A stretch of DNA of 63,250 bases, filler included, from Stramenopiles sp. TOSAG23-6 (taxonomy: Eukaryota), in NCBI GenBank assembly GCA_900128565.1. It is 11 parts of 11 records of this genome, joined end to end, with 100 filler letters (N's around TTAATTAATTAA, not from the genome) between each part and the next. Parts side by side here need not be neighbours in the genome. Positions count along the whole stretch, not along the records: positions 18,688 to 24,810 come from LT636771.1; 10 more parts are not named here. The stretch is one strand, 5' to 3'. Shown piece by piece: positions 1-37,470 of the stretch; within the stretch, counting starts at the first letter, position 1; each line of letters opens with the position of its first letter. The position numbers and the translations under genes were made by a program. The notes beneath the pieces are model-generated. The model worked only from the letters and a program-made list of their open reading frames with translations, made no database searches and had not been told where the DNA came from.

Positions 1-4
1 TAAC

Positions 5-6241: not shown

Positions 6242-6272
<31 letters not shown>

Positions 6273-7977: not shown

Positions 7978-8008
<31 letters not shown>

Positions 8009-8623: not shown

Positions 8624-8658
<35 letters not shown>

Positions 8659-9756: not shown

Positions 9757-9791
<35 letters not shown>

Positions 9792-10025: not shown

Positions 10026-10073
<48 letters not shown>

Positions 10074-12252: not shown

Positions 12253-12326
12253 CTGAAGAGTACAAAAATATTTTTCATTTTTTTTTTTTTTTGGTACAAA
12301 TTTGTTAGGTATGAAATTTTTTTACG

Positions 12327-12357
<31 letters not shown>

Positions 12358-12463
12358 GGTAAANNNNNNNNNNNNNNNNNNNNNNNNNNNNNNNNNNNNN
12401 NNNNNNNTTAATTAATTAANNNNNNNNNNNNNNNNNNNNNNNNNNNNNNNNNNNNNNNNNNNN

Positions 12464-14088: not shown

Positions 14089-14386
14089 TCTGAAATATTT
14101 GGAAATGTTGCCCCCACCTTTTTGATCTAATCAGTTCAGTGTATACTTTTGGAGTAATGACGGGAAAGACGATCCTAGTCGAAGGTAGTGTCGTCCGTTT
14201 AATTTGGTACGAAATTTTGGTACGAAATTTTGACAATGTTGATTGTTGGCCGTTGTTTAGTAAATACTATATAACATTGTGTCGCCAAGCTAGATTATTA
14301 TTCGGCTATTATTCCGTTGTTTAGAAAGTGAATACGCCTGTCTTTGTAAGACATTTGAAGAGTTCTCATTTTATTACATTCGATCT
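14089..14386. promoter_or_regulatory. Short divergent intergenic region between START-DUS and ATG7, containing a tandem GGTACGAAATTTT motif
   Basis: Head-to-head ORFs about 300 bp apart; motif occurs twice at ~14206-14231. Confidence 0.45.
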
Positions 14387-15429
14387 ATGTTAAAATATCA
14401 GTGTTTTTCATCTCATGTTGACGCTTCATTCTGGAAAGAGTTGGCTCGGCGAAAGCTTGATGAGTACTGTCTGAGTGACGCAGCTGTCGATATTGTCGGT
14501 TCATATGATGTTTCCCGTCACGGTGGGAAAATTGGTGCTCGAATGAGTGTTAGTGCTGACGCATTCCAGGTAGAAATTGACACGTATGCTAATAGTGGTG
14601 TTCGGTGTCGTGGTGTGCTCAGAAACTTTAACACTGTGGAAGAATTTAAAGCAGCCAATCGAACTAAAATGCTTAATGATCTTGGAATGGAAGTGTTATC
14701 AGATATTATTTCAGGTAAAGCGATAGAAGATCCGAGTAGGCTTAACCCTTTTCTCCTTGTTACCTTTGCAGATCTAAAGAAACATGTTTTTGTCTATTGG
14801 TTTGCGTTTCCTGCTCTAGTCCCTTCAAATAATGCTAACTTTTGTGGTTCAATTGAAACAACTTCTGAATATTTTTCCGATCCAGAAAAACAACTACCTT
14901 CCGTAGCCGAGATAGTATGTAAACTTGGAGGTGGATCCCGACCGGCTCCAGCATTTGTCATGCGTCGAAATAGTGAAACTGGTGAAATTGATATTTTTGA
15001 TCTGTCTATATTATTAGATGAAAATCCAGAAGATTTGAAAGCAAACTTTGTAATTGGCATTTTAGATCCAAGTTCATTACCAGAGAATCCTGGGTGGCCT
15101 ATCCGTAATATTTTGTTAATGATCGCCTTACGAATGAAGTTAAACACATTTCGTATTTTATGTTATAGAGATTATCCATGTCACTCTTTTACAAATTCGT
15201 CAATGAAAAGTGTATTTTTTACAGTGGATCTCAAGGGAATGTTGACGTCGGAGGTAATGTCGACATCTCTAACTCTTCCAAATTCGATTATTTCAAAAGT
15301 TTTAGGTTGGGAATGTAATAAAAAAGGCAAAATGGGTCCAAGACATGTCAATTTATCAAAACTCATGGACTCTCGTATGTTAGCTGATTCTGCAGTAGAT
15401 TTAAATTTGAAATTGATGAGATGGAGAAT
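14387..15429 (+). CDS. ATG7: Autophagy E1-like enzyme ATG7, N-terminal exon (3'-partial)
   Basis: FSSHVDASFWKELARRKLD, GVLRNFNTVEEFK, FLLVTFADLKKHVFVYWFAFPAL, NPGWPIRN, GWE, LADSAVDLNLKLMRWR motifs. Confidence 0.95.
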
Positions 15430-15525
15430 GTTCGTTTTCAAAATTGAATTTTGATTTTTTTTTTTTTTTTTTTTTTTTTCAAAACGTTTTTTAGGCTAAC
15501 TTTTTTTTTTTTTGAAAATTTTTTT
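15430..15525 (+). mobile_element. Family A-like intron start (GTTCGTTTTC...GCTAAC) truncated at the fold-back centre
   Basis: Begins where ATG7 similarity stops (aga at|GTTCG). Confidence 0.6.
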
Positions 15526-15621
15526 AAAAAAATTTTCAAAAAAAAAAAAAGTTAGCCTAAAAAACGTTTTGAAAAAAAAAAAAAAAAAAAAAAAAATCAA
15601 AATTCAATTTTGAAAACGAAC

Positions 15622-16664
15622 ATTCTCCATCTCATCAATTTCAAATTTAAATCTACTGCAGAATCAGCTAACATACGAGAGTCCATGAGTTTTGATAAAT
15701 TGACATGTCTTGGACCCATTTTGCCTTTTTTATTACATTCCCAACCTAAAACTTTTGAAATAATCGAATTTGGAAGAGTTAGAGATGTCGACATTACCTC
15801 CGACGTCAACATTCCCTTGAGATCCACTGTAAAAAATACACTTTTCATTGACGAATTTGTAAAAGAGTGACATGGATAATCTCTATAACATAAAATACGA
15901 AATGTGTTTAACTTCATTCGTAAGGCGATCATTAACAAAATATTACGGATAGGCCACCCAGGATTCTCTGGTAATGAACTTGGATCTAAAATGCCAATTA
16001 CAAAGTTTGCTTTCAAATCTTCTGGATTTTCATCTAATAATATAGACAGATCAAAAATATCAATTTCACCAGTTTCACTATTTCGACGCATGACAAATGC
16101 TGGAGCCGGTCGGGATCCACCTCCAAGTTTACATACTATCTCGGCTACGGAAGGTAGTTGTTTTTCTGGATCGGAAAAATATTCAGAAGTTGTTTCAATT
16201 GAACCACAAAAGTTAGCATTATTTGAAGGGACTAGAGCAGGAAACGCAAACCAATAGACAAAAACATGTTTCTTTAGATCTGCAAAGGTAACAAGGAGAA
16301 AAGGGTTAAGCCTACTCGGATCTTCTATCGCTTTACCTGAAATAATATCTGATAACACTTCCATTCCAAGATCATTAAGCATTTTAGTTCGATTGGCTGC
16401 TTTAAATTCTTCCACAGTGTTAAAGTTTCTGAGCACACCACGACACCGAACACCACTATTAGCATACGTGTCAATTTCTACCTGGAATGCGTCAGCACTA
16501 ACACTCATTCGAGCACCAATTTTCCCACCGTGACGGGAAACATCATATGAACCGACAATATCGACAGCTGCGTCACTCAGACAGTACTCATCAAGCTTTC
16601 GCCGAGCCAACTCTTTCCAGAATGAAGCGTCAACATGAGATGAAAAACACTGATATTTTAACAT
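15622..16664 (-). CDS. ATG7: ATG7 N-terminal exon (mirror copy)
   Basis: Reverse complement of 14387-15429. Confidence 0.85.
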
Positions 16665-16962
16665 AGATCGAATGTAATAAAATGAGAACTCTTCAAATGT
16701 CTTACAAAGACAGGCGTATTCACTTTCTAAACAACGGAATAATAGCCGAATAATAATCTAGCTTGGCGACACAATGTTATATAGTATTTACTAAACAACG
16801 GCCAACAATCAACATTGTCAAAATTTCGTACCAAAATTTCGTACCAAATTAAACGGACGACACTACCTTCGACTAGGATCGTCTTTCCCGTCATTACTCC
16901 AAAAGTATACACTGAACTGATTAGATCAAAAAGGTGGGGGCAACATTTCCAAATATTTCAGA

Positions 16963-18587
16963 ATGAGTGTCCATCGCACAATGCCTCCAAGAGGATCTGG
17001 TCCTATTTTGAAGGAAGAGTTACTTCCGGAAACCCTTAAAATCCTCAAGGAAATATGTAAAGATGAACCAGCACTACCCCCAGAATCCCTCACCAGCAAC
17101 AATAGTAGCAAAGATGACGCTTCTTCACCAAAGTGGAGTGCCTTTTTTACATATCCAGAAAAAGATGGCATTCATGTAAATGCATATCGTCGGAGAAAAC
17201 CACCGTCTTCACTTTTTGAGTATATTTTTATTGGTGTGCTACCTGTGTCTGCGAGAGCCTTGGTTCAGGCAACATATAATGACTCGTACAGACTAAATTG
17301 GGATTCTAATTGTAAAGAAGTTTCTCATATCACGTCGGAGAAAGGTTGTCAAGTACTATATTTGGAAAGTGCATACCCAATGCCAATGTCTAATAGAGAT
17401 TATGTGTTTTATCGACGTCTTGGTTCCGTTATTATACCGAAAGAGGCAAAAGAGGCAAAAGATGGAAAATGTAGAAAAATTTATACTTGTCTTTCTCGGC
17501 CACATCCTGAAGACGCAAAACTTCGCCCTTTGCGATATGGATTTTTCACTGGTGTTGTACGTGTTACACAATCTTATGCTACTCAAATGATTGAACCGTT
17601 GACACCTACTTCATGTAAATTTGTTATAAAAATTTTTGAAGATCCTGGAGGAAGTATTCCAGCATTTGCAGTGAATTTTGCTGTTCGAAAACTCTTACCT
17701 AAAATGGTGATGGAATTATATGAATCTGCTCTACATGTAGATGCATGGTTGAAAGCAAACCCTGATGCGTCGAAGTCTATCACATTTGCTGATGTCGATT
17801 TTACTGATTGTGTCAATTTGAAATCACAAAAAGAGAAACAAGAGAAACAAAAGAAACAATTTCACGAATCTGATGCATCAACTCAAGAAAAACAATTTCA
17901 CGAATCTGATCCAATCCACTCAACGAATACATCCAATAAAATGTCATTGTCTTCAAGATTACTCGGTGGTGGTGGAGGTAGTGATGAAATAGTTCAACAT
18001 ATAAAAAAAGATCCAGAAGATTTCGTGTATAGTAAAAACAATATAGAAAATACTTCAAGTAAAATAATGAAAATGTATCCAAGATATATGTCTCAACCTC
18101 GCACGAAATCTTGTACATCTAATTTTGTACATGAAATTTTGTCCCGAAAACATAAATTTTGGTGTGCGCCAATGGTAGGTCAAAGTGATTTAGCATTTAG
18201 AATGCTTGCACGGGAGAATAATTGTAGTGTATGTTCAACACAAATGATAGATGCCGCTGGGTATAATGTTTCAGAAGTATATGTACGTTTTCACAATTTC
18301 AAATGTAATTTTTTTTCGTACGAAATTTCGTACCTAACGATTTTTTTTTTTTTTTTTTTTAAATATTTTTTCACTATACATAGAAATTCTTTTGCATTTC
18401 ATCAAAAGGATCGACCTCTAGTGATTCAATTTTGTGGGAATAATGCGGATGTTCTAATTGCCGCTGGGAAAAGAGTTGAAGCTGCTGGATTGTGTACGTT
18501 TTCATTATGAATTTCAAATTTATTTTTTTTTTTTTGAAAATTTTGTACCTAACAAATTTCGAATTTAATTTTTTTTACAATACATGT
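16963..18587 (+). CDS. START (PCTP/STARD7-like) domain fused to tRNA-dihydrouridine synthase (DUS1-like), 3'-partial
   Basis: START: YRLNWD, YPMPMSNRDYVFYRR, EDPGGSIPAFAVN. DUS: CAPMVGQSDLAFRMLAR, DRPLVIQFCGN. Exons 16963-18282, 18382-18493, 18586-. Confidence 0.85.
18283..18381 (+). mobile_element. Family A non-canonical intron (GT...AT), 99 nt
   Basis: gta tat|GTACGTTTTC...GTACGAAATTTCGTACCTAAC...CACTATAC-AT|aga aat gives SEVY-RNSF; the TAG 2 nt further would frameshift DRPLVIQF. Confidence 0.85.
18494..18585 (+). mobile_element. Family A non-canonical intron (GT...AT), 92 nt
   Basis: ttg t|GTACGTTTTC...TACAATAC-AT|gt yields a Cys codon; no AG in the element. Confidence 0.75.
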
Positions 18588-18687: not shown

Positions 18688-20877
18688 CACCTGCATTTAG
18701 ATTTGTTAATGTACTTGTTTTTATCGCATCTAGATCAAGTGATACATTTTCGTTTTCTTCAATTTCTTCCTGAATATTTTCATCTTCAGGAATTTCATTT
18801 ACTATTATAGGCTCACGCCAGTGACAACCAGGTTCCGCAAGACATCCACTTTGTCCGATTTTGGTTAAGTTCTCGCAACTATTTCGGTCTTTACAAGATA
18901 GCTCAGTTTCATTCCAAGCACATCCTTCGAGAGATTCACAAATCATTTTATGCATAGCTGGGATCTCTGAAATAGCTTTATTCCATTGTGATACAATTTT
19001 CACACGATTTGAGCAGATCGCTGTGCAATTATCTATATTGATTTCACATAAAGGTCCTGAATAATCATCATTACACATGCATTTAAATGACGCTTTTTTG
19101 TCGATACACTTTCCGCCGTGTTGACAAGGATTTGAGAGACACTCATGTATTGAATAAAAATAATATCAAATTCGAAATTCGTTAGGTACAAAATTTTGTA
19201 TGAAAAAAAAATTCATGATGAAAACATACATCTATATTATGTTCACAAAATTGTCCATCAAATCCATTCCTACATTCACAAGTGTACTCTGCAATACCAT
19301 CCACACACTTGGCCTTATTTTTACATTCATGTTCTAAACATTCATCGATTTCTGTACCACACAAAAGTCCTTTCCATATATATTGTGAAAAATATTTTTT
19401 TTTGTAAAATTCATTAGGTACAAAATTTCGTATGAAAAAAAAAATAATAATTTGAAAATCCTTATGAAAATCCTTATGAAAACATATCCTTTTGAACATT
19501 CACATTTAAAATTTTCCTTTGGCAAGTCTATGCATTTGCTATTATTTTTACACGGAGCGCTCACACAATCATCAATATCGATTTCACAAAATTCACCTGT
19601 AAATCCTTTCGTGCACTCACATGAATATTTTGCAACTTCATCGATACATTTTGATCCATTTTCACATTTATTGTTTCCACAGTCTTGTATTGTGAAAAAA
19701 TATTAAAAAAAAAAATGTTAGGTACAAAATTTCTTATGAAAAAAAATGAAATTTATCATGAAAACGTATATCAAGATCATGGTCACATAGTATACCGGAA
19801 AACCCAGTTTTGCATTCACAGTGAAATCTACCTCCCATTAAATTCTCACAAGAAGCTCCATTGTTGCAAGGTGAGCTTTCGCATTCATCAATATCGACAT
19901 CGCAAGTTTCACCAGTCCAACCTCTAGAACATGGATATTGTAAAAAATATTTTTTTTTGATTTAAAAAACATCGTTAGATATAAAATTTTCTATGAAAAA
20001 AAAATTTGAAATTTATGATGAAAACATATGTACACCTAAATCCTATAGGTAAGTCTGTACAAATACTATTATTTTGACAAGGTTTGGATTCGCAGTCATA
20101 GATATTGTGAAAAAATATTTTTTTTTGTAAAATTCATTAGGTACCAAATTTCGTATGAAAAAAATAAATTCAAATTAATGATGAAAACGTATCTTTAATA
20201 TCGTTTTCGCAAAAGATACCTCTTGTACCAGGATGACATTTACAATAGTAATCTCCATTTTTCTTGGCAATACATATTCCTTCATTTTTGCACGGAGATG
20301 AAGAACATGGACCCATAGCTTTTGCACAGTTTTTGCCTTCCCAACCAGGAGTACAACGACACATATAGTCTTTATTTTCATTTTTACACACGCCTTGCTT
20401 ACACGGATTTGGTGTACAAAGGTCTATATTTTCCTGTTTTGGAGGTTTCCTTTTTTCTATTTGTGTTTTCAATTCGGTTTCTGTGCAGTTTTCACCAGTA
20501 AATCCACTGATGCAGTCACACTTATACAAGCTACCTTGTTTTGTACATCTACCCCCATTCTTACAAGGTGACGTTGCACATGGATCTATTATTTTATCCA
20601 AGCGCGGATCTTCCCAAGAGGTATTTCCAGTTTTACTGTTGTAATAGTATGTATTTCCAGTACTATCATCTATATGCGTTGTCCAGGTATCTTCTTCAAC
20701 TATTTTAGTTGTTTTCATTGACGCCGGTTTTTCCCATGTTGTTTCTTTTGTTTCCGTATTGTAATAATACTTGCGGCCTGAGCCTGTATCTGTGAATTCT
20801 TGCCAATCAGAAGTAATTAAACTCAAATTATTACTAAATGCAATGAGTAAGAACACAAATGTTGTATCAAATCTCAT
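18688..20877 (-). CDS. Signal peptide + 2 WW domains + about 9 EGF/Ca-EGF repeats (3'-partial, 6 exons)
   Basis: MRFDTTFVFLLIAFS; WQEFTDTGSGRKYYYNTETKETTWEKP; WTTHIDDSTGNTYYYNSKTGNTSWEDP; exons 20877-20193, 20099-20030, 19932-19770, 19684-19488, 19377-19230, 19144-18688 give continuous 6-Cys repeats. Confidence 0.9.
19145..19229 (-). mobile_element. Family A non-canonical intron (GT...AT), 85 nt
   Basis: ata gat|GTATGTTTTC...TTCAATAC-AT|gag tgt gives CEHNID-ECLSNPC; AT duplicated. Confidence 0.85.
19378..19487 (-). mobile_element. Family A non-canonical intron (AT...AT), 110 nt
   Basis: aaa gg|ATATGTTTTC...CACAATAT-AT|a tgg gives CSK-G-WKGLLC, keeping the conserved EGF Gly. Confidence 0.85.
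19685..19769 (-). mobile_element. Family A non-canonical intron (AT...AA), 85 nt
   Basis: ctt gat|ATACGTTTTC...CACAATAC-AA|gac tgt gives CDHDLD-DC. Confidence 0.8.
19933..20029 (-). mobile_element. Family A non-canonical intron (AT...CC), 97 nt
   Basis: tgt ac|ATATGTTTTC...TACAATAT-CC|a tgt gives FRC-T-CSRGWTG; boundary can slide a few nt. Confidence 0.8.
20100..20192 (-). mobile_element. Family A non-canonical intron (AT...CT), 93 nt
   Basis: aaa g|ATACGTTTTC...CACAATAT-CT|at gac tgc gives CENDIK-D-DC; an end 3 nt later is also in frame. Confidence 0.7.
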
Positions 20878-21137
20878 GGGAATCGCATGTATCCAAAGAC
20901 TATTTGTATCTATTAATAGTACGTGTTACGTGTTTTGCGTAGCCTACATTTGAATTTCATGGAATCGGAATCATCATATTCCATTCGGCCGGAGATTTTA
21001 AAATTAATAGAACCGAAAACAAAACGAAAACGCTTCGTCCTCTTCTTTTTGAAGAACATGCGATACCTACTAGACCGTGTCATCAAGAATGATTAAGGGA
21101 TTATGATTTTATGCTTAGTCGTTGGTAGTGACGAAAA

Positions 21138-21541
21138 TGGAAGCTAAGGACGACAAGCCCAGGAATAGTTTTGATGGCAGTAATTCTGGATTTACCAACT
21201 CTCGCTCAATCGGCCGCGTGAGTCCAAACCGTTTATTTAAACACAACATTAAAAGTGCTTTACAAGAATCAGCGCCATTTATTCGTTCTTCCGAGATCAT
21301 TTTCTCCAATGAATGTGACAATGAAGCAGAAATCCACATAAAATGTTTATCTGAAGGTGATGATTTAATCATTATCGCAAACTGGGTTGGAAAATCTCTT
21401 GGTTTTCGCTTATTGCGGAGTTTGCGACCATGTTTCAAAGTGACTCACTGCGATGACCTTCACTCTTTATTGATGCAATGCCCTTGCTATTCAGATGCTT
21501 TCAATTCTTCGCTTGCAAATAAATTAGCTACATTAACATAA
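21138..21541 (+). CDS. Hypothetical protein (~134 aa)
   Basis: Open frame with ATG, divergent from the EGF gene, higher GC than its flanks; no recognisable domain. Confidence 0.4.
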
Positions 21542-21824
21542 AACACGTCAATTTGTCATACAAAGAAAACGTGAAAAATAAGGGAATTAGGTTTAACGTA
21601 ACTCTCTAATCCAAAAACAATTGTTAGGTCAAAATGGATTGCCTTCAATTCGCAGGATATTACTGAGTTATTCGCGAAAGTAATAAAAATGGTTTATTTT
21701 TTGACTTTTATTTTTTATTACAATTTATGCGTTGTGCTTACAATTTATGCGTTGTGCGAGAAAATAGTAGATTTGTCTATACAGAGGTATTGAAACCACA
21801 GACTTAAACAACAAACAGTGATAA

Positions 21825-23456
21825 TTAAATAATTTTAATATTTTCTGGCTTTACAGAAATAGAAGCTGCACCATTGCACGGTCGTACACCAAGCCTTCCA
21901 TTTTTCATTATCGTTTTTGTAACCACACCTTCAGTGCCATTCAAAGACTCTCCCTTCTCCGAAGTAAGATTAAAAAATCGAACTTTATCTCCTATCGCAA
22001 ATTTATGGATTGTAATATTTTCTGGCTTTACAGAAATAGAAGCTGCACTATTGCACGGTCGTACACCAAGCCTTCCATTTTTCATTATCGTTTTTGTAAC
22101 CACACCTTCAGTGCCATTCAAAGACTCTCCCTTCTCCGAAGTAAGATTAAAAAATCGAACTTTATCTCCTATCGCAAATTTATGGATTGTGGGGACATCT
22201 ACTGCTGCTAACTTCTTAACATCTGATAAATTCTCAACTTCTGCTGCCGCCGCCGCCGCCGCTGCTGTTCCTGCTCCCGCTGCTGCGGTCGCTGCTCCTG
22301 CCGCTGCTCCTGCTCCTGCCACTGCTGCCGCCGCTGCCGCTGCTGTTTTCCTCGCGTCAGCTGTCTCCGAATGGATGCCACCTCGTCGTAAATGAGGTAG
22401 AAGTCTCTCTCTAGCATCAAAATCCTTCATCGTCTTCTGAAGTTGTTCATCCATGTTTCCCGCAATTAAATCGATCAAGTCGTCAGCTAAGTGATTTGCT
22501 TGGACGGTGCCATTGGAAATCATGTCCTGACATACCCGAGATAAGTACAATTTTAGTCTTGCTGTATATGTATTCCAAACACTTCCAGGAATCACAGTTA
22601 GTTGTTGCTGCGTTCTATCACGCCTAAAAAACAAATCATTTCTATTGATACGTTTTTCAGACATAAAAGAGATTGGTCTGTGATCACCGTCGCCATAAGC
22701 AGGAAAAGTTTCGGTCTTGTCATGAAGGTCAGCACAATGAGGTTTAATAATCCATCCGTCTGGTCGAATTACAATTTCAGTGAAAAGGAAACCCATAAAA
22801 ACCCCATGTACAGTCTCAAAGTCATCAATAACACTATCGGCACGCAAATCATTTTTCGACCTATGATAATACATCACCTCTGCTCCACTTTGGTGTCTAA
22901 ACACAGGCGCACCATTTTGATATTTGTCTTGTATATTGTATCTGCCAGATTCAATACTTTTTCTTAAAGAATATACGTATACGTCTTCATCGAATAAGTC
23001 CTGATTTTTATGCTCTTCATATTCATCTCTGTCCCGTGTTACTCTAGGCGGAAAGCTGAAAGAATAATTAATATAATTATTTGGATCAAGCCTCTCTGCG
23101 GCTCTATTCCATTGCCCAGTTGGGGAACTTGTAGTTATTTCATACCAGTGTTTATTAGTTTGACCCAATATCCACCGGTCGTCTAAACCCCCACGCCAAA
23201 TGAATATTTTACCCTCTTTGCTTTCTTTTGAAAAGATAATTTCACGTGCGTTTTCTGATTCTGATGGATCCTGTGTGTAGATTCCGTTAGCGTTTTTATA
23301 ACCAGCACCATACACATAGAGGTGTTCTGGAATTTCAGGTTCAGGTTCAAGTTCAGTTGCTCCATTTACAGTTCTATTTCTACAATTAAAAATAAGCGTC
23401 ACGAGCAACAGCTTAAGGAAGGTGGCCAACAGAAACACTTTAATAAAAGTTATCAT
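21825..23456 (-). CDS. Intronless 543-aa protein: hydrophobic N-terminus, poly-Ala linker, two near-identical 59-aa SH3/KOW-like C-terminal repeats
   Basis: Long ORF; repeat IHKFAIGDKVRFFNLTSEKGESLNGTEGVV...SVKPENI twice. Confidence 0.75.
   Translation of the reverse strand: MITFIKVFLLATFLKLLLVTLIFNCRNRTVNGATELEPEPEIPEHLYVYGAGYKNANGIYTQDPSESENAREIIFSKESKEGKIFIWRGGLDDRWILGQTNKHWYEITTSSPTGQWNRAAERLDPNNYINYSFSFPPRVTRDRDEYEEHKNQDLFDEDVYVYSLRKSIESGRYNIQDKYQNGAPVFRHQSGAEVMYYHRSKNDLRADSVIDDFETVHGVFMGFLFTEIVIRPDGWIIKPHCADLHDKTETFPAYGDGDHRPISFMSEKRINRNDLFFRRDRTQQQLTVIPGSVWNTYTARLKLYLSRVCQDMISNGTVQANHLADDLIDLIAGNMDEQLQKTMKDFDARERLLPHLRRGGIHSETADARKTAAAAAAAVAGAGAAAGAATAAAGAGTAAAAAAAAEVENLSDVKKLAAVDVPTIHKFAIGDKVRFFNLTSEKGESLNGTEGVVTKTIMKNGRLGVRPCNSAASISVKPENITIHKFAIGDKVRFFNLTSEKGESLNGTEGVVTKTIMKNGRLGVRPCNGAASISVKPENIKII
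21837..22189. repeat. 177-bp tandem duplication within CDS
   Basis: Two copies offset by 177 nt with one visible substitution (Ser/Gly). Confidence 0.9.
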
Positions 23457-23700
23457 TATTCTTATTATTTGTATATTGGGGCCTTAGTAAATAAGTATAG
23501 ATAGACTTTGCTTGTTCTTCCTTGAATTTAATCTAAATCGGTATGGACGCACAAAACACTGACTTGATCCGTGTCCTTTACCGCGGTTTTTTTCGTGTGT
23601 TTTGCTGGCAGGTCGAGGTTGAGGTCAATATATCGCGATTTGATTTGATGACGTCGTACAAATTGTACAATGATACCACCGAATACATATTAGACTAAAA

Positions 23701-24810
23701 ATGGGCAAATTTGATGAAATTCCCTTACATTTGCGTTTTTTATTCGGGGCAAGTGCAAATTGCACTGCTACGGCTGTGACACATCCTATGGATGTTTTAA
23801 AAGTTCGCTTGCAGCTCGACGGGCAAGTTGCTGCAAAAAAAACACGTCTAGTTCATTGTGCTCAGTCAGTTTTCCAATTAGAGGGTACCAGAGGTTTCTT
23901 TAGGGGTCTTTCTCCTGCATTTCTTCGACAAATTTTTTATGGTGGGACTCGGCTCACTGTATATGATATTGCGTTAGATTACGCTAGTGACCATGATGGA
24001 ACACCGCCTCCACTATATATAAAGGCCCCAATAGCTCTCACCGCAGATATTTTATACTTATTACAAAACAAAAAATAATAATTCATCAATTTCTATTGTA
24101 GCGTTATAATTTATTAATTTGTATTACAATTGACACATTGAACACTTTATATGTGCGATTGGTGCCATGGTTGGCAATCCCTTTGATTTATCATTAGTTC
24201 GAATGGCAGCAGATGGTAGTAAACCAGTAGCAGAGCGCCGTATGTATAAACATGGCTTTGATGCAGTGTATGTTTTATATGAATTTCTAATTGAATTTTT
24301 TTTCATACGAAATTTCGTACCTAACGATTTTTTTTTTGAAATATTTTTTCACAATACGTGTATCGAATCAGCAAAGAAGAAGGTTTTCTCTCACTTTGGC
24401 GGGGTTGTGGTCCAACATATTTCATACATATTACAAACAAACAAATAATAATATCAAGTTGTATCATATCTTTTATAATTTATTAATTTGTATCATAATT
24501 GACACATTGAACACTTTAAATGGTAGGTCGTTGTATGGTATTGAATGTTGGTCAGCTTTCAACGTATACTGAAGCTAAACAACAGCTTAAAGCGTATCTG
24601 GGATTTCGCGAGGGAATTACATTACATTTTGTTTCATCTATGATTTCTGGTTTTGTTGCCACGTCCATGGCTTTGCCATTTGATACTGCTAAAACTAGAA
24701 TGTATGTTTTATTTTTTTTCAAATTCTATTTTTTTTTCGTACGAACTTTTGTACATAACGATATTTTTTTGAAATATTTTTCCAAAATACATACAGCAAC
24801 TACCTTCCGG
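23701..24810 (+). CDS. Mitochondrial carrier (SLC25), 2-oxoglutarate/malate or dicarboxylate-tricarboxylate type, 3'-partial, 5 exons
   Basis: Three PxDxxKxR signatures (PMDVLKVR, PFDLSLVR, PFDTAKTR); exons 23701-24046, 24153-24267, 24360-24416, 24522-24701, 24793-. Confidence 0.92.
24047..24152 (+). mobile_element. Family B non-canonical intron (AT...AT), 106 nt
   Basis: gca g|ATATTTTATAC...TTGACACATTGAACACTTTATAT|gt gcg gives ALTA-G-AIGAMVGNP. Confidence 0.85.
24268..24359 (+). mobile_element. Family A non-canonical intron (GT...GT), 92 nt
   Basis: gca gt|GTATGTTTT...CACAATAC-GT|g tat cga gives FDA-V-YRISKEEG; GTGTAT repeated across both junctions; no AG in the element. Confidence 0.88.
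24417..24521 (+). mobile_element. Family B non-canonical intron (AT...AT), 105 nt
   Basis: cca ac|ATATTTCATAC...TTGACACATTGAACACTTTAAAT|g gta gives GCGP-T-VGRCM. Confidence 0.85.
24702..24792 (+). mobile_element. Family A non-canonical intron (GT...AT), 91 nt
   Basis: aga at|GTATGTTTT...CCAAAATAC-AT|a cag caa gives DTAKTR-I-QQ; AT duplicated. Confidence 0.8.
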
Positions 24811-25026
24811 NNNNNNNNNNNNNNNNNNNNNNNNNNNNNNNNNNNNNNNNNNNNTTAATTAATTAANNNNNNNNNNNNNNNNNNNNNNNNNNNNNNNNNN
24901 NNNNNNNNNNTAACGTATGTTTTATTTTTTTGAAAATTTGAATTTTTTTTTTTTAGTTTTCATACGAAATTTTGTACCTAACAAAATGTTTTTGATTTTT
25001 TTTTGAAATATTTTTCCAAAATACAT

Positions 25027-28000
25027 ACAATTTCATGTATACAACCAACATTAAACACTACTTTCAGTGATATACAATTGGTGAACCGGGTATCCAGACA
25101 ACCAAAGATTCCAGGACGTCATCGAAAACATGGAACAGATTTGGCAAGAATAATATATGTTTTTTTTTTTTTGCCCGGATACAAAAAAATTTGATGTGAA
25201 AAAATGGTATTTATCCCCCGTAGCTGATGATAGAATAGACGATTATCCCCAACAACAACAACAACAACAAATGCATGACGTATCATCTATGGATCATGCA
25301 TCTTTGGGACATCATATTCGAAATACTGATCCATATGCAAATAACTCTAATCGAAATGAATTAAATATATCTCAAGGTACGAAATTTGGTATGGATTTGA
25401 GTAGTCAAAGATTTGTATCACAACATGTTATGGACCCTAATGGTAGAAAGCGTTCTAATTCTGATTCATCTAATTCTTATCACGAGTATAAACAACATTG
25501 TGAAAATTTAATCACACAAGTTGAACGCCTCGATTCGTATGAGGAAAAAATGTTTGATTTTCAAGGTGTTAGAGCTCGTGTACGAAAAGGTGCATATAAA
25601 AAACAACATGGATTTACTGATGCTATAAAACGTGTCATAGAAAAAGTACGAAAGAAAGAAGAAGAGCACCAGAACGAGAAGTTTTTTAGAGCCACTGAAG
25701 TGTTGGAGGAATTCAAAAAATTATTAAAGAATTTTCGTAGTGATATGAATCATTTAAAAAAACAGGGGTATAGTGATCAAATATATCCCATAAGTCAAAA
25801 AAAACGTATGAGAATGTATGTTTTATATGAATTTCTAATTTAATTTTTGTTTCACACGAAATTTCATACTAAACGATTTTTTTTTTGAAATATTTTTTCA
25901 CTATATATGACGCATCATGGAGGAGATGTCATTCATGGTACTCATCAATATGGATATGAGGATACTCGTAGATGGTCTTCAACAAGCAGTTCGATTAACA
26001 ATGATGCAATCAGTAATAATTATTGTTATGAAGATGATAGGCATCAGTTTGAAAATTCATCAAACATGAATCGATACAATCAAGGAATTCGACCTTCGAG
26101 TGGACTTAAAATTAAGATTGATCGTGCTCATGCTACAGACATTATTAACCTACAACACCACCCTTCATCCGCACGTTCAACGAGCAGTCGTCAAAGCTAT
26201 GTGGATGAGATCCAACAACAGCAGTTCGAACAACAACTACAACAACAACAATTACAACAACAACAACAACAACAACAACAACTATTACAACAACAACAAC
26301 AACAGCAACAACAACAATTCCAGCTTCAGCAACAACAACAACTAAAAGAAAAAATGCGTAGAGAGCAACAGCGGGTGTTACAACAACATAAACATTCATA
26401 TGTAAATCAGAGAAAATCGGAGTCTCACAGAAGACCGACTGTTCGCAGTGCTCAACAAAACACGAATTCTTCGAATAACTCTAACAAAATGTATCAGAAA
26501 GTTCCTGTCGTATTATTACTCGGAGCTCCATGCTGTGGTAAAGGAACACAAGGTAAAATATTACAAAGTGCTCTGCGGTGGCATTATGTATCATGTGGTG
26601 AAGAATTGCGTAAAGCACGAGTCATCAGCGCGAATGCTCATGCGATAAAAAATTTGGCACGTCTAGAGAATGATCCAAATTCGAAATCAGAAGCTTATGT
26701 CTTGCGGTGTCGAATTATTGATGAATTATTAAAGCGTCAATGTCTTCGTGCTTGCTTAGTAGAAAGTAATTATGCTGGCTTAGTGATTGATGGGTGCCGA
26801 ACTGTAGAACAAGCGAGGGCAATGGAGCAGACACTATCATGTATCAAAGGTCTCCCACCCCTAAAAATTCAGATTGTTGTAACTTTGCATGTACCGAAGG
26901 AAATTGTAAAAGAAAGAACATTTGATCGATGGATACATGCTCCAAGTGGTCGTATTTACAGCAAAACCATACGACCTCCAAAAAACCCTGGGTTTGATGA
27001 CGTCACCGGTGAACGTCTTACCCAAAGAAGTGACAATGATATGTGGGGAAAAAGACACGATTTTTATATAGAAAAACTTGAAGATGTACAAAATTATTTT
27101 GTAAAAAGAGGCGCCTTATTATTAAATGTTGATGCTACATCAACGCCATTGAATGTTCATTCTAAAGTTACCAATGTAATCAATCTAGGTTTATATAATC
27201 GGAAAATAAAACTTTCTCTTCCGGGTGAAGCCGCTTTATGCAGTCGTCCTCGATTGGCTCATTCATCAGCTTTACCTTCTTGGAACAAAGCTAATGGTGG
27301 TGGATGTCTTATTTTATGTCGCAAACCACTTGCTGATTTAATAATTAGAGCTTTAGCTGAAGTTGATGAAACTCCTTTAAAACTTTCTCAGAATACGAAT
27401 ATACCTACAACAGAAGTGTCAACATCACTTAGGAAAACACTTGCCTGGCCTATTACGCAAAATCCTGAGCGACTGCGTGATTTTTTAGTAGATGTTGCTT
27501 CTAGTAACAAAAATATTTCTGTTGTGCAACAAACTGTTCAGCTTGGAGAATGTTTAGGTTTACAATCATTATTACGCGAATCAACTGATATGAGTGCTTA
27601 TTTTGGTACTGTCACTGGATTAAAAACGTTTGAAAATGGTGTTCAATTTGGAAAAATTTCATATAACCCTAACCCAGATGAACCTTTAAATGAACCTTTA
27701 AATGAACCTTTAAATGAGCATTTAAATGAGCATTCAGGAATAGTGAAAGAAATAGAGTTTAGTATGGATGAAGTTCGAACACCTACCATTGATATCACAA
27801 AAGATATGGAGGTTTCGTTTAATATTGTATCTAGACAGGGGAAAGATTGGGCTGTTAACATTGAAATTTGGGATGAAAAAAAAGTGAATATTTTAGATGT
27901 TTTAGAAAATGAAAATAATGAAATTTGGAATCTTGAAAAGACGAAAAATACAAAAAATGATACGATGGACAAATTAGATCCTAAAGATTTGGAATCGACG

Positions 28001-29140
28001 ACGGTTACAACAGATAGAAATTTGATTAATTCTGGCCATTCTTTTGATTTGACTACGAGACTCTCAGACAAACACGAATTACCAAAGAGTGATACGATGA
28101 TGGTTAAAAATAATGTAGCTGATGAAACATGTACTCGTAACCCTAACCCTAATGATACAATTGGAGTTGAACAAAGTTCAATTAATACGGAATTAACTAC
28201 AGAAAATGAAAACCTTTCCGTAGATGGTGAAAATCACAAAAATAATAAGAACAATGAAACATTGAAATCAGTGATGGATGATTCTAAAACAATAATGAAT
28301 AAAGAGATAAAAAACAATGAAACACAAAATACTACAAAAACAATGAATGACGATACAAATCAAGAAATAACGACTAAAAAATTATTTGAGAATAATGGAA
28401 AAGATATCCAACCATCTTCAAATTGTGATGAAAAAACTGGAAAAACTGAAAAATCGAAAACGAATAAAGAAATATGGTGTGGTTTGCTCACATTTGGATT
28501 AAAATTACCTCAAGTTGTTCTCCCCAGTGGTGTCTTTCAAGCCGAAGATTCGGGACATTCTCTAAATTGCGCAGCGCGAGAATTGAAGAAACATCTTGGC
28601 ATCGTTTTAGAATCAAAAATTTGGACTAGTACGACACAACAATATTTACGACAAAAACAATTAAATCCAAAATATGGTACATTAGAGTTATATAGAGATT
28701 CGGTTAGTCAACCCAAGCATCGCGTTTATTATATTTTATTACCAGAGGCAAAAGATGCTATTGTCAGTGTTTTGTATGATAAAGATGGCCGGCGTATCAT
28801 TCGAATATCAACAAAACATCCAGCGTCTAGTTCAACAGTTACATCAACAAAAAGTCGATCAACAATAAAAAAAAATGAAAAACAGCCTAATTGGGTTGTT
28901 AAAACTGTGGACGGTGTGCACTTCTTTTATAATATGCATAAAAAAGTATTTGTCTCTCATACATTACCTCAAGAATGGATAGCAGCAGGATGGCAAATTG
29001 CTTGTCAGAGTGCTGGTACAATGTTGTATTGGTTTAATAAAATATCACAAGAGTCTGAATGGAGAGCAGGCGATAATGCAAAATCACCACCAGGATTTGA
29101 ACCGCACCCGGATCATAAAGAAGTGAAAATCCCAAATTAA
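25027..29140 (+). CDS. Copy of ADK-like multidomain gene
   Basis: Same translation as 117-4230. Confidence 0.75.
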
Positions 29141-29752
29141 AAAACTTTTCTTAAATAGTAGGATTTGAACCGCCGCGTTCATAACAGAATCAGAGGGAAG
29201 ACATCTAGAGAGTAAGATTTGAATAAATAAGGATAATTTCTCTAGAAAAGTAGGACTTATTTTGGTTAGTTGAAGCCCTAATCCTATTTATTATCTCTGT
29301 AGGGTGATGTCGTGTTTGGTTTTATTTTGATTGGATTGTTGTCAAATCATATGTGAAGATGAAACATAATTTTATTCTTGTTTTGCTGGTGTAAAGAGTA
29401 AAAGCAGTTGTATGTTTTTATAAATATAGTATTAAGCTATTTCTTGTTTTTCACATTTTTTGAATTTTTTGATTACTATTATTTTTTTTTCTAAACAGGG
29501 CATTTGTTTTCGCTAAAGTTTCATTATTATTGTAGAGCTTGTATAGGCCCAGTAAGACATGAAAAATGTCGGTCATTGTATTGTAAATGATCAACTTTAT
29601 CATATATCTAGTATTGTTGAAGAAGTACAAGATAAGTGATTTCAACAAATTGCACTAAAAATGATCATAATGCTAATGTATAAAAATTCGAATATGATGA
29701 TGGAAAATATATTTGTGTATTACGACTACATTTAATTGAATAATAAAAACAT

Positions 29753-30789
29753 CTAAACAATACCGCTCTCACCTGTAGTTAAATTCACATTTTCATATAA
29801 CCCATTCAAATGTTCATTCATTTTCTCAAGTAACACGAAATCCTGTATTTCTTTTGGTTTTTCAATTTCTAATTTAATAGCTCCTTTTATATTTCTGTAT
29901 AAAGCTGCTTTTTGGTATGAGTTTCCTGCTGTTTGTGCTAATAATGCTGTAACTGTTGTATTCAATCTAAGAAGTTTTTGTATTTCTTTAATTTCTGAAT
30001 TTAGAATTTGTCTTCTTTCATGAAACCAATTCCAAAAATTTGGACTTTGCACGAAATATAGTAAAAGTTGAAACCAAGTTGAATTTCGTCCAGTTCCACA
30101 AATAGCCGCAATATTTGGCATTTTCTGTGGATTTATTGTTTTTTTTTTCATATTTGATAAAAATAAATCAATTTCAAATTTAGGTATCAGATGTGTAGGA
30201 TTTTCATACGGTCCAAAACCAGTCGATCCAAACCCTAACCCTAATGATATATTTTTACTGACATTTTGGGTATTTGAATGCATTGAAAAAAATGATGCTG
30301 AGCTACCAATACCTCCTGGAACGTACATTTTTTTATGTCGTGTTTTTTTGGAAATTTGAAAAAAGGGTTCAAATGGTAGTAATAATTCTGTAGTTAAATG
30401 TCTAAAATGTGATTTTAAAATTTTAGTATTAATCGAACAAAATGGATCTATGGACAAACCTGTTACAGATTGTACAGTAGTATCTGAATGTATGGATGAG
30501 GATGATGACGTATTGCTTCTGGTACTTTTATTATTACTCATACTTATTGGATAGGAAAATGATGAATTTCTTTGTGATTTTTGTGATGGTATTTTATCTT
30601 GTAGATTTCGTGATTGTTTTGAAAATGATGAACTTATTCTTTTCCGTATATTTCGTGTTGTTGTAGGTTTTTTTAATAATTGTTTCATAATAGTTTTATA
30701 AGGTGAAACTACAGGCAAATTACGACATATAAGATATGCTCTATATGAATGTAATTTATTATCTGATTGTGAACTACCTGCAACAGCCC
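29753..30789 (-). CDS. DENND6: Copy of DENND6-like last exon
   Basis: Same translation as 4843-5879. Confidence 0.65.
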
Positions 30790-31248
30790 AAATAATGTGA
30801 AAAAATATGTTCCCATTCAAAATTTGTTACATTCAAGATTTTGAAAGGTTTTGAAAGGAAAACATGGAAATTGAAAAAATATATACATTTGAACAATACA
30901 TTTGAACAATATATTTGAACAATACATTTGAACAATATATTTGAACAATAGATTTGAACAATACATTTGAACAATATATTTGAACAATACATTTGAACAA
31001 TACATTTGAACAATACATTTGAACAATACATTNNNNNNNNNNNNNNNNNNNNNNNNNNNNNNNNNNNNNNNNNNNNTTAATTAATTAANNNNNNNNNNNN
31101 NNNNNNNNNNNNNNNNNNNNNNNNNNNNNNNNTAACGTATGTTTTATTTTTTTGAAAATTTGAATTTTTTTTTTTTAGTTTTCATACGAAATTTTGTACC
31201 TAACAAAATGTTTTTGATTTTTTTTTGAAATATTTTTCCAAAATACAT

Positions 31249-34200
31249 ACAATTTCATGTATACAACCAACATTAAACACTACTTTCAGTGATATACAAT
31301 TGGTGAACCGGGTATCCAGACAACCAAAGATTCCAGGACGTCATCGAAAACATGGAACAGATTTGGCAAGAATAATATATGTTTTTTTTTTTTTGCCCGG
31401 ATACAAAAAAATTTGATGTGAAAAAATGGTATTTATCCCCCGTAGCTGATGATAGAATAGACGATTATCCCCAACAACAACAACAACAACAAATGCATGA
31501 CGTATCATCTATGGATCATGCATCTTTGGGACATCATATTCGAAATACTGATCCATATGCAAATAACTCTAATCGAAATGAATTAAATATATCTCAAGGT
31601 ACGAAATTTGGTATGGATTTGAGTAGTCAAAGATTTGTATCACAACATGTTATGGACCCTAATGGTAGAAAGCGTTCTAATTCTGATTCATCTAATTCTT
31701 ATCACGAGTATAAACAACATTGTGAAAATTTAATCACACAAGTTGAACGCCTCGATTCGTATGAGGAAAAAATGTTTGATTTTCAAGGTGTTAGAGCTCG
31801 TGTACGAAAAGGTGCATATAAAAAACAACATGGATTTACTGATGCTATAAAACGTGTCATAGAAAAAGTACGAAAGAAAGAAGAAGAGCACCAGAACGAG
31901 AAGTTTTTTAGAGCCACTGAAGTGTTGGAGGAATTCAAAAAATTATTAAAGAATTTTCGTAGTGATATGAATCATTTAAAAAAACAGGGGTATAGTGATC
32001 AAATATATCCCATAAGTCAAAAAAAACGTATGAGAATGTATGTTTTATATGAATTTCTAATTTAATTTTTGTTTCACACGAAATTTCATACTAAACGATT
32101 TTTTTTTTGAAATATTTTTTCACTATATATGACGCATCATGGAGGAGATGTCATTCATGGTACTCATCAATATGGATATGAGGATACTCGTAGATGGTCT
32201 TCAACAAGCAGTTCGATTAACAATGATGCAATCAGTAATAATTATTGTTATGAAGATGATAGGCATCAGTTTGAAAATTCATCAAACATGAATCGATACA
32301 ATCAAGGAATTCGACCTTCGAGTGGACTTAAAATTAAGATTGATCGTGCTCATGCTACAGACATTATTAACCTACAACACCACCCTTCATCCGCACGTTC
32401 AACGAGCAGTCGTCAAAGCTATGTGGATGAGATCCAACAACAGCAGTTCGAACAACAACTACAACAACAACAATTACAACAACAACAACAACAACAACAA
32501 CAACTATTACAACAACAACAACAACAGCAACAACAACAATTCCAGCTTCAGCAACAACAACAACTAAAAGAAAAAATGCGTAGAGAGCAACAGCGGGTGT
32601 TACAACAACATAAACATTCATATGTAAATCAGAGAAAATCGGAGTCTCACAGAAGACCGACTGTTCGCAGTGCTCAACAAAACACGAATTCTTCGAATAA
32701 CTCTAACAAAATGTATCAGAAAGTTCCTGTCGTATTATTACTCGGAGCTCCATGCTGTGGTAAAGGAACACAAGGTAAAATATTACAAAGTGCTCTGCGG
32801 TGGCATTATGTATCATGTGGTGAAGAATTGCGTAAAGCACGAGTCATCAGCGCGAATGCTCATGCGATAAAAAATTTGGCACGTCTAGAGAATGATCCAA
32901 ATTCGAAATCAGAAGCTTATGTCTTGCGGTGTCGAATTATTGATGAATTATTAAAGCGTCAATGTCTTCGTGCTTGCTTAGTAGAAAGTAATTATGCTGG
33001 CTTAGTGATTGATGGGTGCCGAACTGTAGAACAAGCGAGGGCAATGGAGCAGACACTATCATGTATCAAAGGTCTCCCACCCCTAAAAATTCAGATTGTT
33101 GTAACTTTGCATGTACCGAAGGAAATTGTAAAAGAAAGAACATTTGATCGATGGATACATGCTCCAAGTGGTCGTATTTACAGCAAAACCATACGACCTC
33201 CAAAAAACCCTGGGTTTGATGACGTCACCGGTGAACGTCTTACCCAAAGAAGTGACAATGATATGTGGGGAAAAAGACACGATTTTTATATAGAAAAACT
33301 TGAAGATGTACAAAATTATTTTGTAAAAAGAGGCGCCTTATTATTAAATGTTGATGCTACATCAACGCCATTGAATGTTCATTCTAAAGTTACCAATGTA
33401 ATCAATCTAGGTTTATATAATCGGAAAATAAAACTTTCTCTTCCGGGTGAAGCCGCTTTATGCAGTCGTCCTCGATTGGCTCATTCATCAGCTTTACCTT
33501 CTTGGAACAAAGCTAATGGTGGTGGATGTCTTATTTTATGTCGCAAACCACTTGCTGATTTAATAATTAGAGCTTTAGCTGAAGTTGATGAAACTCCTTT
33601 AAAACTTTCTCAGAATACGAATATACCTACAACAGAAGTGTCAACATCACTTAGGAAAACACTTGCCTGGCCTATTACGCAAAATCCTGAGCGACTGCGT
33701 GATTTTTTAGTAGATGTTGCTTCTAGTAACAAAAATATTTCTGTTGTGCAACAAACTGTTCAGCTTGGAGAATGTTTAGGTTTACAATCATTATTACGCG
33801 AATCAACTGATATGAGTGCTTATTTTGGTACTGTCACTGGATTAAAAACGTTTGAAAATGGTGTTCAATTTGGAAAAATTTCATATAACCCTAACCCAGA
33901 TGAACCTTTAAATGAACCTTTAAATGAACCTTTAAATGAGCATTTAAATGAGCATTCAGGAATAGTGAAAGAAATAGAGTTTAGTATGGATGAAGTTCGA
34001 ACACCTACCATTGATATCACAAAAGATATGGAGGTTTCGTTTAATATTGTATCTAGACAGGGGAAAGATTGGGCTGTTAACATTGAAATTTGGGATGAAA
34101 AAAAAGTGAATATTTTAGATGTTTTAGAAAATGAAAATAATGAAATTTGGAATCTTGAAAAGACGAAAAATACAAAAAATGATACGATGGACAAATTAGA

Positions 34201-35362
34201 TCCTAAAGATTTGGAATCGACGACGGTTACAACAGATAGAAATTTGATTAATTCTGGCCATTCTTTTGATTTGACTACGAGACTCTCAGACAAACACGAA
34301 TTACCAAAGAGTGATACGATGATGGTTAAAAATAATGTAGCTGATGAAACATGTACTCGTAACCCTAACCCTAATGATACAATTGGAGTTGAACAAAGTT
34401 CAATTAATACGGAATTAACTACAGAAAATGAAAACCTTTCCGTAGATGGTGAAAATCACAAAAATAATAAGAACAATGAAACATTGAAATCAGTGATGGA
34501 TGATTCTAAAACAATAATGAATAAAGAGATAAAAAACAATGAAACACAAAATACTACAAAAACAATGAATGACGATACAAATCAAGAAATAACGACTAAA
34601 AAATTATTTGAGAATAATGGAAAAGATATCCAACCATCTTCAAATTGTGATGAAAAAACTGGAAAAACTGAAAAATCGAAAACGAATAAAGAAATATGGT
34701 GTGGTTTGCTCACATTTGGATTAAAATTACCTCAAGTTGTTCTCCCCAGTGGTGTCTTTCAAGCCGAAGATTCGGGACATTCTCTAAATTGCGCAGCGCG
34801 AGAATTGAAGAAACATCTTGGCATCGTTTTAGAATCAAAAATTTGGACTAGTACGACACAACAATATTTACGACAAAAACAATTAAATCCAAAATATGGT
34901 ACATTAGAGTTATATAGAGATTCGGTTAGTCAACCCAAGCATCGCGTTTATTATATTTTATTACCAGAGGCAAAAGATGCTATTGTCAGTGTTTTGTATG
35001 ATAAAGATGGCCGGCGTATCATTCGAATATCAACAAAACATCCAGCGTCTAGTTCAACAGTTACATCAACAAAAAGTCGATCAACAATAAAAAAAAATGA
35101 AAAACAGCCTAATTGGGTTGTTAAAACTGTGGACGGTGTGCACTTCTTTTATAATATGCATAAAAAAGTATTTGTCTCTCATACATTACCTCAAGAATGG
35201 ATAGCAGCAGGATGGCAAATTGCTTGTCAGAGTGCTGGTACAATGTTGTATTGGTTTAATAAAATATCACAAGAGTCTGAATGGAGAGCAGGCGATAATG
35301 CAAAATCACCACCAGGATTTGAACCGCACCCGGATCATAAAGAAGTGAAAATCCCAAATTAA
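31249..35362 (+). CDS. Copy of ADK-like multidomain gene
   Basis: Same translation as 117-4230. Confidence 0.75.
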
Positions 35363-35974
35363 AAAACTTTTCTTAAATAGTAGGATTTGAACCGCCGCGT
35401 TCATAACAGAATCAGAGGGAAGACATCTAGAGAGTAAGATTTGAATAAATAAGGATAATTTCTCTAGAAAAGTAGGACTTATTTTGGTTAGTTGAAGCCC
35501 TAATCCTATTTATTATCTCTGTAGGGTGATGTCGTGTTTGGTTTTATTTTGATTGGATTGTTGTCAAATCATATGTGAAGATGAAACATAATTTTATTCT
35601 TGTTTTGCTGGTGTAAAGAGTAAAAGCAGTTGTATGTTTTTATAAATATAGTATTAAGCTATTTCTTGTTTTTCACATTTTTTGAATTTTTTGATTACTA
35701 TTATTTTTTTTTCTAAACAGGGCATTTGTTTTCGCTAAAGTTTCATTATTATTGTAGAGCTTGTATAGGCCCAGTAAGACATGAAAAATGTCGGTCATTG
35801 TATTGTAAATGATCAACTTTATCATATATCTAGTATTGTTGAAGAAGTACAAGATAAGTGATTTCAACAAATTGCACTAAAAATGATCATAATGCTAATG
35901 TATAAAAATTCGAATATGATGATGGAAAATATATTTGTGTATTACGACTACATTTAATTGAATAATAAAAACAT

Positions 35975-37011: not shown

Positions 37012-37470
37012 AAATAATGTGAAAAAATATGTTCCCATTCAAAATTTGTTACATTCAAGATTTTGAAAGGTTTTGAAAGGAAAACATGGAAATTGAAAAA
37101 ATATATACATTTGAACAATACATTTGAACAATATATTTGAACAATACATTTGAACAATATATTTGAACAATAGATTTGAACAATACATTTGAACAATATA
37201 TTTGAACAATACATTTGAACAATACATTTGAACAATACATTTGAACAATACATTNNNNNNNNNNNNNNNNNNNNNNNNNNNNNNNNNNNNNNNNNNNNTT
37301 AATTAATTAANNNNNNNNNNNNNNNNNNNNNNNNNNNNNNNNNNNNNNNNNNNNTAACGTATGTTTTATTTTTTTGAAAATTTGAATTTTTTTTTTTTAG
37401 TTTTCATACGAAATTTTGTACCTAACAAAATGTTTTTGATTTTTTTTTGAAATATTTTTCCAAAATACAT

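Follow-up and report, generated by a model that had tools for sequence, protein, structure and literature searches.

Family-1 introns in the carrier gene and elsewhere

The DNA analysed here is a stretch of 63,250 nucleotides (nt), linkers included, from Stramenopiles sp. TOSAG23-6 (assembly GCA_900128565.1), which is called the window in this text. In its mitochondrial-carrier gene, the range 24268-24792 contains two copies (e1 and e2) of a repeated intron family, named family 1 here, and also the intervening exons and one intron of another kind. Most introns in the genes of the window belong to this family. Seventeen independent copies with both ends located were found in unique sequence, on five unique contigs and in at least six genes: those for the carrier and for a protein with WW domains and EGF repeats (the latter with five copies), one gene each with an adenylate-kinase domain, with START/Dus and with ankyrin, and one more on the contig 6236-12363. 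These genes are unrelated, and all 17 copies lie in the sense orientation of their gene. The typical length is 83-116 nt. The copies were detected with blastn and with a profile built from eight hand-defined copies.

The window is made of draft contigs, their joints being N44-TTAATTAATTAA-N44 linkers, and it is AT-rich (G+C 21-41% in 2-kb steps). One contig of 6122 bp is present seven times at 100% identity (1-6122, 24911-31032, 31133-37254, 37355-43476, 43577-49698, 49799-55920 and 56021-62142), with 13 additional bases on the first copy; this is assembly redundancy. The contigs 6236-12363 and 12464-18587 are self-inverted duplications in which open reading frames (ORFs) and element matches are mirrored, a structure to be expected of chimeras from amplification or assembly. 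Whole-window counts are therefore inflated by repeat copies, and the unique sequence comes to about 1-6135, one half of each palindromic contig, 18688-24810 and 62243-63250. The count of 17 leaves out the six further occurrences of the 6122-bp contig and, in both palindromic contigs, the mirrored half, as well as 62725-62805 (doubtful frame and 5' border), 5882-5954 (5' end could not be placed), 6245-6342 (truncated at its 5' end where the contig begins), a copy from 9066 (3' end lost at the palindrome centre) and 62463-62532 (match to the core only).

The consensus of the 17-copy alignment reads ATATGTTTTCAT ... TTTTTCATACGAAATTTTGTACCTAAC ... AAATATTTTTTCACAATAC. Its first block is conserved over all 17 copies and begins with GTAYGT, or with ATAYGT in four of them (13 copies start with G and four with A). 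The best-conserved block is the core, which ends in CCTAAC about 35 nt before the exon junction and is followed by a T-rich tract and by the conserved end TTTCACAATAY; from its motif and its distance, CCTAAC would be the branch site. Copies start with RTAY in 15 of 17 cases (the exceptions being GTTT and GTTC) and end with ATAY in 14 of 17. Moreover, three of the four A-starting copies end in ATAT and ten of the 13 G-starting copies in TAC, so these sequence rules, already given in a first-pass annotation of the window, hold in the de-duplicated set.

Some further observations concern the same elements. A perfect 16-nt palindrome, GTACGAAATTTCGTAC, lies inside the core just ahead of CCTAAC at 24306-24321 and in the copy at 18283-18379, and is imperfect in most others; it could form a small hairpin or be a protein-binding site. 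The 5'-cut copy at 6245-6342 ends with ...TTTTTGTACTCTTCAG immediately before an open frame, and from this copy some relatives of family 1 may use an ordinary AG. On the minus strand of a contig end, 5975-6135 is a tandem repeat with a 13-nt unit, AATGTATTGTTCA, which includes the reverse complement of the element-terminal CAATAC.

Table 1. Family-1 introns and their parts in the window; flanks are given as the last two exon bases / the two bases after ATAY
Feature	Position	Strand	Flanks	Remarks
Intron e1	24268-24359	+	GT/GT	carrier gene; element 24268-24357 (GTATGT...CACAATAC; GTAT...ATAC) + GT; upstream exon end ...CAGT
e1, 5' splice-site-like GTATGT	24268-24273	+		from sequence reading
e1, conserved core CATACGAAATTTCGTACCTAAC	24304-24325	+		CCTAAC at 24320-24325
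e1, conserved 3' block GAAATATTTTTTCACAATAC	24338-24357	+		ends ATAY; from alignment
Intron e2	24702-24792	+	AT/AT	carrier gene; element 24702-24790 (GTAT...ATAC) + AT; upstream exon end ...GAAT
Intron g1	20100-20192	-	AG/CT	WW+EGF-repeat gene
Intron g2	19933-20029	-	AC/CC	WW+EGF-repeat gene
Intron g3	19685-19769	-	AT/AA	WW+EGF-repeat gene
Intron g4	19378-19487	-	GG/AT	WW+EGF-repeat gene
Intron g5	19145-19229	-	AT/AT	WW+EGF-repeat gene
c0a	5-116	+	AC/AT	contig start; also at 24915, 31137, 37359, 43581, 49803 and 56025 in identical contigs
c0b	906-998	+	AT/AT	frame open across junction; repeated in six identical contigs
c2a	18283-18381	+	AT/AT
c2b	18494-18585	+	GT/AT
Mirrored c2a/c2b copies	12466-12768	other strand
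c10c	62940-63010	-	GA/GA	short family-1 variant; ankyrin-repeat gene
c1d	6542-6673	+	TT/TT	diverged family-1 intron; end GTAT+TT
c1b	7944-8096	+	CT/AT	gene shared with c1fc, c1g and c1a
c1fc	8247-8446	+	TT/GA	needs element+1
c1g	8591-8708	+	AT/AT
c1a	8826-8941	+	AC/AT

Exon junctions and the flanking dinucleotide

The exon junction of family 1 lies 2 nt past ATAY, on the joint evidence of reading frames, a carrier profile and the cysteine spacing of the EGF repeats. The carrier profile was built from 85 proteins of 270-335 amino acids, taken from 150 homologues among the matches listed, and all in-frame excisions up to 12 nt from each border were scored with it. For e1 the excision of 92 nt (junction ...FDAVYRISKEE...) obtained 55.0 bits, against 47.6 for an 86-nt GT..AC excision that leaves RTAY and 2 nt in the exon. 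For e2, whose contig ends 18 nt after the intron, the rival borders score 54.7-56.5 bits, less than 2 bits apart, and do not resolve the exact border.

The introns of the EGF gene were judged by spacing patterns, profile scores being swamped by the intact neighbouring domains. All seven uninterrupted EGF units have the form C-x-C-x8-C, and the three uninterrupted linkers picked by pattern are six residues long. These spacings are restored at g2, g3, g4 and g5 when the element and the following 2 nt (element+2), or the preceding 2 nt and the element (2+element), are removed, and in none of them by the model that is 6 nt shorter. In addition, c1b, c1g and c1a have an open frame (90 nt on each side) with element+2 alone among +0 to +3, and the frame is open with element+2 in c0b, c2a, c10c and c1d. 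Altogether eight of the nine non-EGF copies tested are open across the junction with element+2, and three of these eight have any open frame with +0, +1 or +3.

As the junction is placed 2 nt past ATAY, the introns of family 1 lack a 3' AG. Ten end in AT, two in GA and one each in GT, TT, CT, CC and AA, with AG in none of the 17, which agrees with the proposal in the first-pass annotation that 2 nt are excised with the element and no AG is needed. From the frames and protein patterns the elements would be spliced out, putatively by the spliceosome. They do not fit the U12 type (AT-AC), in which the 5' end is RTATCCTT and 10-15 nt separate the branch site from the 3' end: family 1 starts with RTAYGTTTT, and from CCTAAC to the junction there are about 35 nt.

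The two bases that follow ATAY repeat the last two exon bases in eight of the 17 copies, where 3.94 are expected when partners are permuted (p = 0.0038). The match had been reported as 8 of 16 copies, and after de-duplication it exceeds chance; the examples singled out at that time, TT/TT at 6542, GT/GT at 24268 and GA/GA at 63010 (minus strand), are right. In a set of 13 copies there are seven matches in register and 0-3 in ten registers slid by 1-6 nt. Among the seven copies not ending in AT, three match (GT, GA and TT; p = 0.011, with a chance rate of 7.3% from long exons). Moreover, the exon ends in AT in six of the 17 copies against a background of 9.6% (p = 0.004). The flank repeat is thus real and strongly AT-biased, in a small sample in which AT is dominant, and the earlier notion of a duplication of any sequence does not agree with this bias, AT standing at the 3' end of ten introns.

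In the nine mismatched copies the two dinucleotides are one base apart in six, and the intronic copy is AT in five, a pattern which would fit an intronic copy that changes towards AT by drift or under selection. Where the copies differ, the protein can indicate which one is kept: with element+2 removed from g4 a conserved Gly is retained (CSKGWKG, not the CSKIWKG given by 2+element), and the same removal from g3 retains an Asp (DLDDC, not DLEDC). These protein patterns favour retention of the upstream copy, as far as the sequences can tell. A third repeat position, with intron base +1 identical to the base that opens the following exon, was rejected (8 of 12 against 6.0 expected, p = 0.27).

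Second intron family, sequencing runs and gene context

The carrier gene contains two introns of another kind, family 2, which are best placed at 24047-24152 and 24417-24521, have AT...AT ends, measure 105-106 nt and are mutually alike. With the carrier profile the first scores 149.7 bits against 145.5 for the next border, and the second scores 79.1 bits, tied with one other border. Neither excess depth in the seawater DNA run X2 nor a flank repeat was found for this family. From such introns the organism seems to tolerate non-GT/AG introns in general.

Public runs with 18688-24810 include seawater and marine metagenomes. Contigs of the DNA run X2 and of the metatranscriptomes X7, X8 and X9 were examined. 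Family 1 is very abundant: in X2 the depth is 500-32,500 in the element-bearing bins against 6-9 (about 7x) in single-copy bins, summed contig depth in this run not being a copy number. X2 contigs with about 98-99% likeness cover 22350-24292 and 24335-24725, so that a second, independent sample has the introns at the same places. In contigs of other copies, likeness stops exactly after 24357 in X2 and is kept through 24792, AT included, in X8. No exon-exon junction was recovered from X7, X8 and X9, which gave short contigs only. Nor did the runs yield an empty site or, in the 15 of 208 joints that were listed, an exact excision.

Two candidates were rejected. Tail-to-head joints (for example 24357 to 24700), listed with no known sequence in between, are not taken as circles or tandem copies and probably come from other loci with two adjacent introns. 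The 36 viral-contig loci obtained with a 16-mer have a likeness limited to the surroundings of the seed and were attributed to chance.

Pfam domains of the window (adenylate-kinase domain, START, Dus, ATG7_N, WW and EGF repeats, mitochondrial carrier and ankyrin) belong to ordinary eukaryotic genes. Four genes are packed within 6.1 kb, and this tight spacing together with the palindromic contigs suggests a small genome that was amplified before it was sequenced. In 1-24810, scans with Rfam and for tRNAs gave no match. An intron-less minus-strand ORF of 552 amino acids (21828-23483) contains an internal duplication and a tract rich in alanine; it belongs to no Pfam family, and a search of 5.8 billion proteins gave it no homologue of 303-966 residues. 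The EGF-repeat protein has a signal-peptide-like N-terminus followed by two WW domains (20736-20876, minus strand), an unusual pairing with an extracellular array.

For the lineage, the N-terminal domain of ATG7 has one EukProt relative at 52% and is otherwise 33-40% identical to animals, chytrids, other fungi and metagenome proteins. In an ATG7_N tree of 37 rows the window protein and its EukProt relative are placed outside the animal clade (98/99) and outside the fungi. The pair groups with other long branches, a foraminiferan included, and since its own branch is long this position could be a product of long-branch attraction, and the tree gives a tentative lineage placement at most.

Origin of family 1 and its meaning

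Introners are known as many near-identical introns in unrelated genes that can be flanked by a target-site duplication. The 17 copies, in at least six genes and on five contigs, have the first of these features, and the 2-nt repeat (eight copies against 3.94 expected, in a small sample where AT dominates) has the form of the second. We see about an even chance that family 1 is a mobile element of the introner kind which duplicates 2 bp of its target, the downstream copy being spliced out. Such an element would carry its own splicing signals, namely the 5' GTAYGT, the core with the CCTAAC branch site, the T-rich tract and the 3' block ending in ATAY. At insertion 2 bp of the target would be duplicated, or 2 nt of microhomology used; the upstream dinucleotide would remain as the last two bases of the exon and the downstream one would become the last two bases of the intron. 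Cutting out the element together with the 2 nt after ATAY would then restore the original frame with no AG required. The preference for AT may mean that AT sites are favoured as targets, or that the dinucleotide in the intron shifts towards AT through drift or selection. The flank repeat would here be the target-site duplication of a DNA insertion, as the pattern of flanking bases suggests. In a bolder form, held tentatively and rather to be doubted than believed, the introner erases itself: it would duplicate 2 bp of essentially any target, the spliceosome would cut 2 nt after ATAY whatever the bases, insertion would be scarless at any coding position, and most introns of the organism would have been built in this way.

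Several results weigh against an introner with a 2-bp duplication. Only eight of the 17 flanks match and ten have AT after ATAY, so AT could belong to the element itself. The frame of c1fc is open with element+1 alone among +0 to +3, and g1 is off by one codon in the EGF spacing under every model, a small linker profile favouring the excision of 96 nt. [quoted passage not shown] It had been supposed that mismatched copies are older, and the identities to the consensus do not bear this out, with means of 0.70 for matched and 0.80 for mismatched copies (one-sided p = 0.96 for matched copies being closer), in an age test that subfamily structure may blur. No transposase was detected among the 12 window ORFs scanned with Pfam, and a 21-mer of the core has no match in JGI metagenome contigs. 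Moreover, RNA folds of eight family-1 introns (z -1.7 to +0.7) are no better than those of shuffled sequences, and family 2 of the same gene is without a flank repeat.

The published systems are compared below as far as excerpts of the cited papers describe them. For algal introners an arrangement like that of family 1 is described in canonical form (PMC11282704). The introners found in Micromonas pusilla and in Aureococcus anophagefferens (Huff et al. 2016, via PMC11282704) have canonical ends, GT or GC ... AG, where a duplication of 3 nt supplies the AG, and clear inverted repeats. Family 1 resembles them in that short, non-autonomous, high-copy elements form introns, the element brings one splice site while the other depends on a target duplication, and excision is scarless; unlike them it has no AG, a 2-nt repeat and 4 nt of inverted ends. 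Amoebophrya, also a marine protist, has repeated non-canonical intron families with direct repeats over the exon/intron borders (PMC7789003). In the excerpts of that paper its introners have direct repeats of 3-5 nt and inverted repeats of 8-20 nt that form hairpins, and U1 was not found, whereas here the inverted ends have 4 nt, no hairpin appears in the folds and the 5' site is U1-like.

One alternative is that the propagating unit is the whole intron, GTAY...ATAY-AT, with no target duplication, spread by an RNA intermediate (reverse splicing) or by a route as in fungal introner-like elements. The exon-end AT would then be a preferred context and the GT, GA and TT matches would be chance. 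This explanation agrees with the AT found after ATAY in ten of the 17 copies and with the X8 contigs of other copies, which stay alike through that AT at 24792; it is also favoured by matched copies that do not look younger, by inverted ends of 4 nt only and by a family 2 that lacks a flank repeat in the same gene. However, three of the seven non-AT copies are exact matches to their exon end (p = 0.011), and the excess of exon-end AT (6 of 17 against 9.6%, p = 0.004) demands an extra assumption. We regard a whole-intron unit as unlikely, if a serious competitor. Much harder to accept is that the pattern was produced by redundancy and chimerism of the assembly, for which the sevenfold 6122-bp contig and the two palindromic contigs might speak. 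The statistics were made on de-duplicated sequence and the loci are present with their introns in independent seawater DNA (the X2 contigs for 22350-24292 and 24335-24725), and such an artefact is hardly credible.

Two further explanations assign the introns to systems already described. The source might be a fast-evolving fritillariid tunicate, and the introns its MITE-derived non-canonical introns of the 3' AT class. In Fritillaria borealis the introns end with a YAY triplet, which often stands ahead of the 5' splice site as well, the main intron classes are AG/AC and AG/AT, and an introner-transposon origin has been proposed (PMC13326754, Soo et al. 2026; PMC11282704). As in the MITE-derived introns of F. 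borealis and F. pellucida, a short direct repeat here connects the ends of exon and intron, its downstream copy leaves with the intron and the U-rich tract is kept; the 3' AT and this tract fit both species (PMC13326754). The organism is marine, and the ATG7 protein sits on a long branch among long branches, where its placement could be an attraction artefact. On the other side, that tree excludes it from the animal clade (98/99), the genes are very tightly spaced, with four of them within 6.1 kb, and family 1 has a canonical-looking GTAYGT and a 2-nt repeat outside a conserved ATAY rather than a YAY triplet. YAY forms the last three intron bases in nine of the 17 copies and the exon end in three. 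Moreover, the literal rule of a YAY exon end (GT..AY intron) fails on the protein evidence for e1 and for four of the five EGF introns (g2-g5). A fritillariid source is accordingly taken to be improbable.

The other explanation is that RTAY and ATAY pair in the RNA and that removal proceeds as in the nonconventional introns of euglenids and diplonemids, the covariation of positions +1 and -3 being that of a helix. These introns resemble family 1 in their variable non-GT/AG borders, short junction repeats and suspected MITE origin (PMC12621601, PMC6221363). End-to-end pairing had also been suggested by the first-pass annotation. Positions +1 and -3 are complementary in 13 of the 17 copies, with G opposite T in c0b as a possible G-U in the RNA, and a terminal 4-bp helix is present in the minimum-energy fold of three of the eight family-1 introns. 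The excess is marginal (9.6 expected, p = 0.053; Fisher p = 0.10), and since the EGF gene holds all four A-starting copies, which have other diagnostic bases in common, shared descent or gene conversion explains the covariation as well as pairing does; positions +4 and -4 do not covary. Folding did not sustain the suggestion: with the two family-2 introns (0.0 and +1.2) included, z ranges from -1.7 to +1.2, and no strong end pairing is seen. In the excerpts of PMC12621601 and PMC6221363 the nonconventional introns have strong end pairing and neither U1 complementarity nor a pyrimidine tract, whereas family 1 has a U1-type GTATGT, a branch-site motif and a T-rich tract. Removal through end pairing is very improbable on these grounds.

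An introner-like element with a 2-bp duplication, as put forward in the first-pass annotation, is the best reading at hand, though two corollaries of that proposal fail. Family 1 is set apart by canonical-looking 5' and branch sites, by a 2-nt repeat off a conserved ATAY, by minimal inverted ends and, possibly, by its host lineage. Searches of the literature on introners, non-canonical introns, MAST-4 and single-cell-genome introns did not find the family described; Henriet 2019, Gawryluk 2016 and the supplements of PMC13326754 may hold a GT/AT class or a 2-nt repeat. The principle, a transposon-derived intron from which the downstream repeat copy is spliced out, is already published, its arrangement being that of Fritillaria borealis, and what would be gained is a further family, perhaps with a host lineage that is new as well. 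If the reading is true, one mobile element can fill a compact genome with introns while disregarding the AG rule, and the 3' splice site would be set by its position relative to a motif of the element and not by the terminal dinucleotide. There would then be a second lineage, besides Fritillaria, in which to ask what selects the 3' splice site when there is no AG, and it would also become testable whether target duplications render intron-creating insertions harmless.

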